A DNA stretch of 32,000 nucleotides from Akkermansia muciniphila ATCC BAA-835 (lineage in GTDB: Bacteria; Verrucomicrobiota; Verrucomicrobiia; Verrucomicrobiales; Akkermansiaceae), in assembly GCF_000020225.1 (NCBI RefSeq), contig NC_010655.1:2610001-2642000 (forward strand), in the 5' to 3' direction. Of this stretch, positions 13,701-17,316 are shown one piece after another. Both the position numbers and the translations under genes were made by a program. Numbering within the stretch: the first letter of the stretch is position 1; each line of letters starts with the position of its first letter. The notes below the pieces were generated by a model that saw nothing but the letters and a program-made list of their open reading frames with translations, searched no databases and had not been told where the DNA came from.

Positions 13701-16509
13701 GTGGGAATACGACGCCTTCGGCAACAAAACGAAAGAAACCTGGAAACTCGCCGATCCGGCCACGACATCCAACTCGCGCATCACCACGTGGAGCTACGGC
13801 GTGGAACAGGCCCAGGATGAAGTATACCGCGTTGTTACGGCGACCAGGAACAACAGCCGGGGAACGACCTATAACGAAACGCAGAAAACGCTGGCTTCCT
13901 CCCTCTCGTCCACGCTGGAAAGCAAAGTCATTTCCATCGACCCCAGGGGAAACGCTTCCGAACAATGGAGCGAATACGGTCCGGGCGCCGTCCGGACGCA
14001 GAAAAGCAGCATCCCCACCTCCGACATCACGGCCGCCGCTACGGTCATCGACGGTTTTATCATCTCGCAAACGGACCATGCGGGCGTCACGGCCACGCAT
14101 ACCCGCGCCTACACGGAAACCGGCGTCATCTACGCCAGCACGGACGGCCGGGGCAACACGGTCACGACGCACACCGACCTTACCGGGCGCACGATCTCGG
14201 TGACGGACGCGGCGGGCAACACGACTTCTACCGCCTACGGCCCCTGGTTTGACCAGCCTGCCGTCGTCACCAACGCCCTGGGCAACACGACCTGCTACGG
14301 CTACGACCTCCGGGGCCGCAACACGGCGCAATGGGGAACGAGGGCCCAGCCCCTGCTCTTCGGCTATGACGAGGCGGACAGGATGATAAGCCTCACCACG
14401 TTCCGGGAGGACGCGGGCGACATCACCGCCGACCCCACGGGACGCACGGACGGGGACGTCACTACGTGGAGCTACGATGACGCCACGGGCCTGCTCATCC
14501 GCAAAACCTGGGCGGACGGCACCCATGAAGACACCGCCTACAATGCCCTGAACTTCAAATCCACGCTCATGGACGCGCGGGGGGTGGTCACCACCTGGGG
14601 CTACAACCTGAAGAAGGGGGTCAACAACTCCGTCTCCTACAGCGACTCCACGCCCGGCATCCAGTACGCCTACAACCACCTCAACCAGCTGACCCAGGTC
14701 ACGGACGCCTCCGGCTCGCGCGTCCTCACGTACACCCCCTGCAACGAACCGGACACCGACAGCATCACCATCGGAGGGAGCTCTTACCAGCTCCAGGAAC
14801 ACTACGACACTTACGGACGCTCCTCCGGCTATACCCTGAAACAGGGAACCGACGTCCTCCAGGAAGCCAGCCAGGGCTATGAAACCGACGGAAGGCTGGC
14901 CAGCGCCGGAATCAGGCACGGGGGAACGGAGCAAAGCTTCGCCTACGGCTACCTGGCAGGAAGCAGCCTGCTCTCCAGCCTTGCGATGCCCGACGGCATC
15001 GTCCGGGAACTTGCCTATGAACAGCGCCGCAACCTGGTCACGGCAATCAACTGCCGCCTGGGGGAAACCGTGCTGGTCTCCCGCAGCCAGGGCTACGATG
15101 CCCTGGGACGCCCGGTCACCCGCACCCAGCAGCGTGGAACGGAACCCGCCCGCAGCGACAGCTTCAGCTACAACGGCAGAAACGAACTCACCGCCGCTAC
15201 CCTGGGCGCCGCCCCCTACGGCTACAGCTACGACAACATCGGCAACCGCAAGACGGCACGGGAACCGGCCGAAGAACTCGCCTACGCGGCCAACGGGCTC
15301 AACCAGTACACCGGCATTGAAGAAAGCGGGGAAGCTCCTTTTGTGCCGACGTACGACGCCTCGGGCAACCAGACCCTCATCAAGACGTCAACGGGCATCT
15401 GGACGGCCGTGTACAACGCGGCCAACCGCGCGGTGAGCTTCACCAGCCGGGACGGCGCGACAGTCGTGGAATGCGGCTACGATTACCAGGGACGCCGCTA
15501 CATGAAGAAAGTGACCCAAAACGGCACGGTCGCCAGCCACGAACGCTATCTATACCGCGGCTATTTACAAATAGCGGCATTGGATATGCTGGACAACCGT
15601 AACGTGCTTCGCACGCTGTTGTGGGATCCTCTGGAACCGGTGGCCACCCGCCCCCTGGCCCTCGCGCAGGGCGCTTCCCTGTACTGCTACGGCATGGACT
15701 TCAACAAGAATGTGTCGGAGGTCTTCGACGCACAGGGAACGATCGCGGCGGCTTACGACTACTCGCCCTATGGGATAGTTGGCAGCACAGGCAACCTCGT
15801 CCAACCCGTACAGTGGTCCGGCGAGATGCACGACGAAGAACCCACCCTGGCCTATTATAATTACCGCTTTTACAACCCCAAAGACGGCAGGTGGATCAAT
15901 AGGGATCCCATCGCTGAACAGGGAGGATGGAATTTTTATGCGTTCGTAGGGAACAGCCCTCAAGATAAGTTTGATGCTTTGGGGTTAGAAGATAAGAAAA
16001 AAGATAAAGAATTTCTTGGATATGTTTATGATCAAACTTTAGAAGGAACAGACATATACATTTGTGAAACAACAGGATTGAAAATAAATGACAAAATTTT
16101 AAATAATACAGTTTCAGAATCCATGAACGCTTTTAAGGAAGCTAATAGTGCTAATCAAGCGGCAAGCAATATTAGATATGCAAAAGATTTTAGTAAAAAA
16201 GTGTCTAAACTTTATAAAGTAACTCCTGGAACAAAAATTCCCGGAGTAAAAATTTCTTCAATTAAAGATATAATTGATTTTGTTTATATCAAAAGAGATG
16301 AAAAAGTTGCATATCAACAATTTTATGAAGCTGCTACACGATATCAAACGCTAAAGAAAAAGACATTCTCAAGTTGTTTTGAATTATGCGTAGCCATGGG
16401 AGAGTATGCAAAAGTATTTTTAAAAAATGATTTAGGAAAAGGAATAGTTAAATTTTCTACTGACTATTGTATTTCTAAATGTAATAAAAGGCATAAAACA
16501 TTAGATTAA
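10771..16509 (+). CDS. RHS / YD-repeat polymorphic toxin, 1912 aa
   Basis: There are many YD repeats ([57 protein letters not shown] ...). The RHS-associated core end is [34 protein letters not shown], followed by a divergent low-GC tip. Confidence 0.95.
   Translation: [1912 protein letters not shown]
15142..15254 (+). repeat. RHS core segment repeated downstream (copy 1 of a direct repeat)
   Basis: About 113 bp, near-identical (about 5 mismatches by eye) to 17384-17496. It encodes [38 protein letters not shown]. Confidence 0.9.
15988..16509 (+). other. RHS C-terminal toxin domain (aa 1740-1912), family unknown
   Basis: It starts immediately after DALGL and coincides with the GC drop from about 60% to about 30%. 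It is Lys-rich, has a single His, and carries CFELC and CISKC motifs. No nuclease, deaminase, ART or peptidase signature that I can recognise. Confidence 0.8.
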
Positions 16510-16515
16510 CAAAAC

Positions 16516-17316
16516 ATGAAAAATATCTTCAATATATTAATATTCAGCACCATAATAAATATAACCCAAGCACAAGACAATATAGAAACTTTGAAACAGA
16601 TCGTTCAATCCGCAGATTTATTTCAAGATTTTCCTATAATAAAATTCATAGATACTAATAAAAATTTAAATGATACCACAAGATACACACAGATACCATA
16701 TTATCGGGATAGATTTGAAGCTTGGAAAAATATTCAAATAGTGACATCTGGAGTTATCAAATTCAAAAAAGACAATGTAGTAGGTAGATCATATGATGTT
16801 ATTCAGATAGATCAGCAAACTGGAAAGCCTGTTCCAAGTTTTTGTATGTTTGGTGGTCGAGATGCAGCAATTTATACATATCAAGTTTTGAAAATCGGAC
16901 AAACCATGTATTTGTGCCACCAATGGTACAATGAATTATGGAAACCTGTTCATAATGAATGGGGAATATCTAGTGTAATAATCAAACACGATTCTTTCCA
17001 AGACAGAGCTATTATGTTCTTTTTGGATAAGGAAAAAAAATCATATGTCTTACCATGCGGAGTTGCCTCAGCCTTGTATGAGAAAAAAAATCAAAAGATT
17101 GTATTAACATTTTTTGATCGTAAAAATCAGCTTACCGAGCTGAATAATGAAGAATACCGTATTTCCAAAATAGAAGCTTCATGTGATAATGACAATATAA
17201 CATGTTATCTGAATGATAAAAAAATTGATATGCAATGGTCCAAAATAGGAAATTGGAGAGAAATGATGATTTATAATTTATGGACTTATGGCAACGGAAT
17301 TGATTGGAAGAATTGA
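16516..17316 (+). CDS. Putative cognate immunity protein, predicted exported
   Basis: It starts 6 nt after the RHS stop and shares the about 30% GC of the toxin tip. 266 aa. The N-terminus MKNIFNILIFSTIINITQA/QD looks like a Sec signal peptide. No family recognised. Confidence 0.6.
   Translation: MKNIFNILIFSTIINITQAQDNIETLKQIVQSADLFQDFPIIKFIDTNKNLNDTTRYTQIPYYRDRFEAWKNIQIVTSGVIKFKKDNVVGRSYDVIQIDQQTGKPVPSFCMFGGRDAAIYTYQVLKIGQTMYLCHQWYNELWKPVHNEWGISSVIIKHDSFQDRAIMFFLDKEKKSYVLPCGVASALYEKKNQKIVLTFFDRKNQLTELNNEEYRISKIEASCDNDNITCYLNDKKIDMQWSKIGNWREMMIYNLWTYGNGIDWKN

Follow-up and report, generated by a model that had tools for sequence, protein, structure and literature searches.

A candidate Rhs toxin/immunity cassette in the Akkermansia muciniphila type strain, with a predicted site of action in the envelope

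We analyzed a 32,000-nucleotide (nt) stretch of Akkermansia muciniphila ATCC BAA-835 (contig NC_010655.1, positions 2,610,001 to 2,642,000; hereafter the window, numbered from its first nucleotide), in which an AT-rich cassette encodes the last 173 residues of an Rhs protein, which we call the tip, and directly downstream a separate 266-amino-acid (aa) open reading frame (ORF). We consider it likely that this cassette is an active toxin/immunity module of an A. muciniphila Rhs polymorphic-toxin locus and that the periplasm or envelope is where the tip acts. Comparison of related loci gives coherent support to a toxin/immunity pair, while a putatively exported immunity protein and a twin CxxxC arrangement in the tip, both absent from an earlier note on this DNA, probably make the periplasm or envelope the place where the toxin would act. 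Although both sequences are unclassifiable, the kind of system is already known, with a textbook layout and many uncharacterized Rhs tips.

The Rhs protein has 1912 aa and is encoded at 10771-16509 on the forward strand; the exact same protein is encoded at 2,617-2,629 kb of the A. muciniphila chromosome CP174100.1. Its residues 1-1739 (10771-15987, forward strand, GC content 0.59-0.69) comprise the Rhs/YD-repeat shell and the Rhs-associated core, with eight stretches matching PF05593 (RHS_repeat, E 8.8e-26, Pfam scan), a match to TIGR01643 (E 2.6e-18, NCBIfam scan), and a match to TIGR03696 (Rhs_assc_core) on residues 1664-1739 that spans profile positions 1-76 of 76 (E 2.1e-18). Because this full-length match stops at residue 1739, we place the end of the core at codon 15985-15987, where the motif is of the PxxxxDPxGL type but has Ala instead of Pro (DALGL). 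The tip, our candidate delivered toxin, follows as residues 1740-1912 plus a stop codon (15988-16509, forward strand; coding nucleotides 15988-16506, TAA stop at 16507-16509), and the candidate cognate immunity gene begins with an ATG 6 nt past that stop (16516-17316, forward strand). GC content measured in 200-nt segments is 0.59-0.69 across 13000-15800 in the Rhs core, 0.345 at 15900-16099, 0.235-0.355 over 16000-17299, and 0.58 again at 17300-17499, which amounts to a fall from about 0.62 to about 0.28 across the tip and the 266-aa ORF with core-like DNA again from about 17320. The earlier note had drawn the same picture by eye, with the core ending at codon 15985-15987, GC dropping from the next codon, a 173-aa tail followed after 6 nt by a 266-aa ORF, and core-like GC-rich DNA resuming beyond it, and each of these points agrees with our measurements; the resumed DNA includes, at 17378-17496, a 94% copy of 15136-15254. 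Its description of the tip as Lys-rich with one His and five Cys likewise agrees with the composition count (27 Lys, 1 His, 5 Cys; isoelectric point 9.2).

By our own calculation, a codon drawn at random from DNA of about 30% GC would be a stop with a probability of about 0.08, and we estimate the chance of an open frame at about 6e-7 for 173 codons and about 3e-10 for 266 codons; on these odds the two frames are not due to chance. The tip is under purifying selection (ratio of nonsynonymous to synonymous substitution rates, dN/dS, 0.16-0.21), as is the ORF (dN/dS 0.16-0.25 at informative divergence). A scan for promoters and terminators, uninformative where the DNA is so AT-rich, returned 26 promoter-like sites versus 13 expected and no convincing forward-strand terminator.

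We then compared both products with known families. No match to the tip, the 266-aa ORF, or the ORF of a second cassette described below was found in Pfam, NCBIfam, PADLOC or PHROGs. For the tip, Pfam and NCBIfam yielded no nuclease, deaminase or ADP-ribosyltransferase profile even at E<=1, PHROGs yielded only families of unknown function at E>=0.006, and PADLOC none; sequence and profile searches of the PDB with both proteins gave nothing below E 0.01 (tip matches at E>=0.27). An exhaustive phmmer search of 1.84 billion protein representatives recovered for the tip only Akkermansia relatives at >=79% identity and no remote ones, and a profile search with the ORF recovered only proteins of Akkermansia(ceae). 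The 266-aa protein has the same sequence as ACD05961.1 of A. muciniphila ATCC BAA-835, which is annotated as hypothetical or uncharacterized. Profile searches of the kind proposed in the earlier note produced sub-threshold noise only, and its view of both sequences as unrecognized stands. Two such matches were set aside, both in compositionally biased stretches and below a cut-off of 25 bits: Cloacin_immun on the tip (18 bits) and DUF3081 on the ORF (18.8 bits). We found no paper in the literature characterizing an Akkermansia Rhs tip.

AlphaFold2 gave poor models of both proteins, with predicted local distance difference test scores (pLDDT) of 52 (tip) and 49 (ORF), from shallow alignments made without the more diverse ORF homologues (P0043-P0047). 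We distrust the weak Kelch/propeller-like Foldseek matches of the ORF. Within the tip, a papain-like C26/H169 dyad, a PLA2-like His and a lysozyme-like Glu-Ser pair were considered and rejected as being without profile or conservation support. C26 and H169 are invariant, and E44-S45 is not conserved in the tip variant of locus L001. A specific test for a papain-like NlpC/P60 (Tae) enzyme returned no NLPC_P60 or CHAP profile match, and the low-confidence model puts C26 on a predicted strand and H169 on the final helix, whereas Tae enzymes need the Cys at a helix N-terminus and the His on a strand.

Related loci provide the main evidence that the two genes form a pair. The ORF lies directly downstream of the tip or a tip remnant, on the same strand and at a spacing of 6-70 nt, in 19 of 19 fetched loci (listed as L001-L006, L008-L012 and L018-L026). 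In the window and in L018 the tip reads in frame with a full-length rhs gene; in L008, L009 and L021 the cassette is an intact orphan preceded by a short piece of the core; and in L010-L012, L025 and L026 the tip is frameshifted ahead of an intact 266-aa ORF at 89-98% identity. In another Akkermansia species (L002-L004) only tip residues 101-173 are present, at 53% identity and with C130Y, ahead of an intact ORF, and elsewhere an ORF homologue stands alone (L007, L013-L017). The ORF therefore behaves as the immunity gene that the earlier note took it to be, linked in every locus and intact where the tip is frameshifted or truncated; as far as can be read from these sequences, its retention while the tip decays is the pattern expected where immunity stays useful after loss of the toxin. 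The two proteins also diverge together, with identities to the window of 94% (tip) and 91% (ORF) in L008, 90% and 67% in L006, and 69% and 46% in L001.

The cassette at L006:226-1550, also seen in L022-L024, is a mosaic when compared with window positions 15913-17316, with a recombination breakpoint inside the tip at about 16210-16290. Nucleotide identity is 99% up to about 16212 and then 73-92% over the rest of the tip and 61-85% over most of the ORF, and the synonymous divergence (dS) of L006 is 0.08 in the N-terminal half of the tip, 0.71 in its C-terminal half and 1.03 in the ORF. Such divergence would fit a role of the tip's C-terminal half in immunity specificity, though simple linkage would produce it as well.

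Homologues of the ORF that keep the signal peptide described below were observed at 38-47% identity at L013:7001-7825, L016:7001-7825, L017:6940-7764 and L007:1-780. In other Akkermansia species the stand-alone gene occupies a conserved non-Rhs locus, after dnaN and two small genes and convergent with ykuD (encoding an L,D-transpeptidase), lysM, tatD and lpxR, and no tip remnant was found there. Its GC content is low in L007 (0.35) and native in three species (0.51-0.53; L013, L016, L017). This stand-alone homologue could be an anciently fixed orphan immunity gene or a cellular ancestor of the cassette immunity gene.

The predicted site of action rests on features of both proteins. The N-terminus of the 266-aa product resembles a Sec signal peptide (MKNIFNILIFSTIINITQA, followed by QD after the putative cleavage site), in which an n-region with Lys precedes a hydrophobic core of about 13 residues and positions -3 and -1 are occupied by small residues. 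This n/h/c pattern is retained in the full-length homologues inspected, down to 38% identity (AHA/Q, TQA/Q, TQA/R, VEA/K, CQA/Q and SQA/Q, the slash marking the putative cleavage site). The segment is the only hydrophobic one in the protein, and the mature product is predicted to be beta-rich (AlphaFold, pLDDT 49). In the tip, the twin CxxxC (C130/C134 and C161/C165) is kept in intact variants, including the 69%-identical one, and the two pairs fall on predicted helices 127-144 and 158-170 (AlphaFold, pLDDT 52). The register of these cysteines probably fits an antiparallel hairpin locked by two predicted disulfides, C130-C165 and C134-C161. No transmembrane segment is evident in the tip, whose maximum 19-residue Kyte-Doolittle mean is 1.09. 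Because a signal-like N-terminus on the ORF, a twin CxxxC in the tip and the lack of a transmembrane-like stretch in the tip occur together, we favor action in an oxidizing compartment, that is, the periplasm or envelope.

By analogy with established Rhs/TcC biology, the 1912-aa protein would build a YD-repeat shell around its last 173 residues, and the freed tip would be delivered to neighboring Akkermansia cells. Judging from the boundary motif, the Rhs-associated core would cut the chain after Leu1739, between Leu1739 and Glu1740. The features described above suggest that the tip, soluble and basic and with two disulfides (C130-C165, C134-C161) probably stapling its C-terminal helical hairpin, would then act in the periplasm or envelope of the target and not in its cytoplasm. 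The 266-aa protein would be exported by Sec with removal of its signal peptide, and would neutralize toxin, whether it arrives from outside or is made by the cell itself, through binding that chiefly involves the tip's C-terminal half. Since the immunity protein is predicted to be soluble and periplasmic and not membrane-integral, we would guess at an enzyme whose substrate lies in the envelope, and an enzymatic envelope toxin is likewise the first guess by likeness to the exported immunity proteins of amidase, muramidase and lipase effectors of type VI secretion systems (T6SS).

The main alternative to an enzyme is a membrane-permeabilizing toxin that forms a pore or depolarizes the membrane and is intercepted by the periplasmic ORF product before insertion, which we regard as unlikely but worth keeping in view. 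The tip is Lys-rich, its residues 92-170 are predicted to be helical with amphipathic character, and vesicles in which Akkermansia Rhs proteins are enriched made target cells lose their structural integrity (PMC11923206), all of which would suit such an activity. However, with its maximum 19-residue mean of 1.09 the tip is far from transmembrane hydrophobicity. Immunity proteins against pore-formers are reportedly integral to the membrane as a rule, although Ssp6/Sip6 is said to pair a small pore-former with periplasmic immunity, and the protein predicted here is soluble.

We find it less probable still that the pair is genuine and its toxin cytoplasmic, for example a nuclease or other enzyme, with the hydrophobic N-terminus of the ORF serving as a membrane anchor or being irrelevant. 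Most characterized Rhs tips are said to act in the cytoplasm (activity list in PMC11923206), the basic tip resembles many nucleic-acid-binding toxins in its isoelectric point, and the signal peptide was called by inspection and hydropathy. Against this stand the conservation of the hydrophobic segment and its small-residue cleavage motif over homologues at 38-100% identity and the lack of any further hydrophobic stretch in the ORF. Four invariant cysteines in a twin CxxxC would be unusual for a cytoplasmic toxin, and the profile searches gave no hint of a nuclease, deaminase or ADP-ribosyltransferase. It is very improbable that the two genes are not a toxin/immunity pair at all, with a tip that is inert filler or else a payload for adhesion or for use on the host, and an ORF for an unrelated secreted protein that happens to lie next to it: the tip has no recognized toxin motif, native-GC homologues of the ORF lie away from any rhs gene in other Akkermansia species, and no recognizable interbacterial secretion apparatus lies near this Rhs gene, but the invariable linkage at short spacing, the retention of the ORF when the tip decays, the joint divergence of tip and ORF, and a typical orphan array containing other tip and small-ORF pairs all argue otherwise.

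Several points weigh against an envelope-acting toxin/immunity module. Toxicity, cleavage, export, disulfides and binding are all inferred, and the signal-peptide call rests on inspection and hydropathy. The assignment of the CxxxC pairs to helices is weak because the AlphaFold models are unreliable, and a Foldseek search of the PDB with both low-confidence models gave no match at E<=0.001, with TM-scores of about 0.2. Linkage and recombination breakpoints, and not a binding interface, could account for the faster divergence of the ORF and of the tip's C-terminal half, and the native-GC, non-Rhs homologues leave room for a cellular role other than immunity. Finally, no PAAR, VgrG, DUF1795 or other secretion-system gene was found in the Rhs protein or in the scanned neighboring ORFs of the 32-kb window.

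The surroundings of the cassette bear on how it came to lie at the end of this rhs gene. A 119-nt core segment at 15136-15254 (forward strand, repeat family D3, containing YDNIGNRKT) is the upstream copy of a direct repeat that flanks the cassette and whose downstream copy at 17378-17496 (forward strand, 94% identical, D3) begins the next, truncated orphan module and would be a substrate for homologous recombination; this downstream copy aligns at two separate places in L010, 6392-6524 and 8082-8214. At 18340-18660 (forward strand, repeat families D1 and D2), degenerate rhs core fragments interrupted by stops show where the array ends in decay, just before the nuo operon. Compared with core positions 15207-15545, 18420-18507 is 86% identical (D1/D2 repeats) and 18497-18626 is 82% identical.

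Locus L010 shares the chromosomal flank of the window, with positions 17364-22412 matching at 98.4%, and carries in order a main rhs gene with a different tip, a signal-peptidase-like gene, an orphan third tip with a polytopic membrane protein, the present cassette in frameshifted form as the second orphan, and remnants. The same locus thus bears another main tip in one genome and this tip as an orphan, in agreement with the earlier view of the tip as an exchangeable Rhs module. Because core segments repeat and L010 can be set against the window, the type-strain arrangement is explained by homologous recombination that joined an orphan to the main rhs gene and deleted the intervening modules. 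Recombination joining an orphan to a main rhs gene is known for Salmonella rhs orphans. As this comparison shows, the module moves by homologous recombination between repeated core segments, with an orphan joined in frame to the main rhs here and the same cassette silent, frameshifted or reduced to the immunity gene alone in other strains.

The earlier note's proposal that the cassette was acquired horizontally is not supported. No relative outside Akkermansia(ceae) was found among the 1.84 billion representatives, in the profile search or on plasmids, where tblastn gave no match to the cassette and no mobile-element donor was identified, and every cassette in these arrays is similarly AT-rich. 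As read from these loci, the cassette's immediate source is an orphan cassette of the same species, joined by recombination, rather than an outside donor. Contigs bearing the cassette are filed elsewhere as 'uncultured Mollicutes' (L005, UQAI01000098.1), 'Ca. Stoquefichus' (L006, JAETUM010000123.1) and 'Clostridia bacterium' (P0007), and L005 and L006 carry Akkermansia rhs core DNA. We rejected cross-taxon spread, as the contigs labeled Mollicutes and Stoquefichus are 1.8-3.2 kb pieces of metagenome-assembled genomes with Akkermansia rhs core at 82-98% identity; such filings are probably composition-driven mis-binning of AT-rich contigs that gives a false look of cross-phylum spread.

Other modules of these arrays were also noted. 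A second orphan module at 17351-18326, absent from the earlier note, consists of a core fragment fused straight to AT-rich DNA at NIGNRKT. Its low-GC cassette (17500-18326, forward strand) contains a 228-aa ORF at 17640-18326, with an equivalent of 191 aa at L010:8356-8931, and the N-terminus of the 228-aa ORF is signal-peptide-like (MSKYIIIPIIFTSTIVYG, followed by DN); the toxin of this cassette appears to have been deleted. In L010, a 183-aa membrane-anchored signal peptidase I-like protein (L010:2466-3017; Peptidase_S26, E 2e-15) occupies the immunity-gene position after the main tip, and a 124-aa polytopic membrane protein (L010:3935-4309) follows the next orphan tip. Judged by their sequences, several Akkermansia Rhs partners look envelope-located. 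Small DUF6714-like ORFs (weak Pfam matches) follow other Rhs tips in Akkermansia orphan arrays (L002:9104-9589, L008:633-1019) and are probably another immunity family.

Housekeeping genes surround the rhs gene: upstream lie those for a GH20 hydrolase and a methyltransferase together with ffh and nadA, and downstream nuoB and nuoC. The first 500 or so residues of the Rhs protein (10771-12300) show no signal peptide, PAAR or other recognized domain; a sub-threshold FlgD Ig-like match at residues 92-145 is the sole match in this region, which is conserved in another Akkermansia species (L002). Farther along the window, on the reverse strand at 26285-30877, a 1277-aa protein with Laminin_G_3, GH18 and BACON domains adjoins a PEP-CTERM-tagged 246-aa protein; these look like ordinary glycan-foraging or surface genes unrelated to the cassette. 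YD-repeat proteins are present in the outer-membrane proteome of A. muciniphila (PMC4960237), and AmII vesicles, in which Rhs proteins are enriched, inhibit AmI and do damage to cell structure, although the authors state that direct evidence is lacking (PMC11923206). Delivery from vesicles or the cell surface into the recipient periplasm would, speculatively, fit the predicted compartment.

The type strain has the cassette on an rhs gene that is full-length and looks expressible, and the immunity gene is widespread, with the exact 266-aa sequence on 363 contigs and 440 members in its 90% cluster. Among next-generation probiotics A. muciniphila is a leading one. In the gut its clades show mutual exclusion, for which Rhs-enriched vesicles have been proposed as the agent, with no toxin characterized (PMC11923206). 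A defined pair with a predicted envelope target would offer a testable handle on strain compatibility and may reveal a new toxin fold. We think it unlikely that the tip founds a new fold of disulfide-stapled envelope toxins, that Akkermansia Rhs proteins are vesicle- or surface-delivered weapons with tips fitted to act in the periplasm of the recipient, and that the immunity family became fixed in other Akkermansia species as a stand-alone gene of native GC beside ykuD and lysM; if this were true, the stand-alone immunity gene would be a long-term resistance gene shaping which clades coexist in a gut.

Enterobacterial Rhs-CT/RhsI modules and orphan arrays, reportedly treated by Koskiniemi et al. 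in 2013 (PNAS) and 2014 (PLoS Genet) and by Jackson et al. in 2009 (BMC Genomics), share with this locus a GC-rich YD-repeat core with a PxxxxDPxGL-type end, an AT-rich tip, an immunity gene directly downstream, downstream orphan cassettes that begin with core fragments, and activation of an orphan by recombination (window versus L010). The present locus differs in its verrucomicrobial host, in the absence of PAAR, VgrG or T6SS context within 32 kb, in its DALGL motif, in tip and immunity sequences unrelated to described families, and in the predicted signal peptide of its immunity protein. As in TcC/Rhs shells (TcB-TcC of ABC toxins and the structures of Tse5, RhsA and RhsP), the core is predicted to auto-cleave and to hold the tip in a beta-shell, but there is no TcA/TcB partner and the N-terminal 500 aa have no recognized domain. 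The two CxxxC pairs on consecutive predicted helices recall, as a pattern analogy only, the twin CX3C/CHCH hairpins of small Tim and Cox17-type proteins, from which the tip, whose disulfides are predicted ones, differs in its 26-residue loop and its lack of homology. Unlike the periplasm-acting effectors of T6SS, the tip has no NlpC/P60 or lysozyme-like sequence or fold match and is part of an Rhs protein and not a free effector, so that the likeness to them is at most one in the way of working, and membership is not supported. In that respect, however, the module resembles such pairs as Tse1/Tsi1, the Tae/Tai amidases, Tge/Tgi and Ssp6/Sip6, which join a toxin of about 150-200 aa to an immunity protein with a signal peptide, predicted in the present case, and because a small candidate toxin is here paired with an immunity protein that has a putative signal peptide, an envelope target would be implied.

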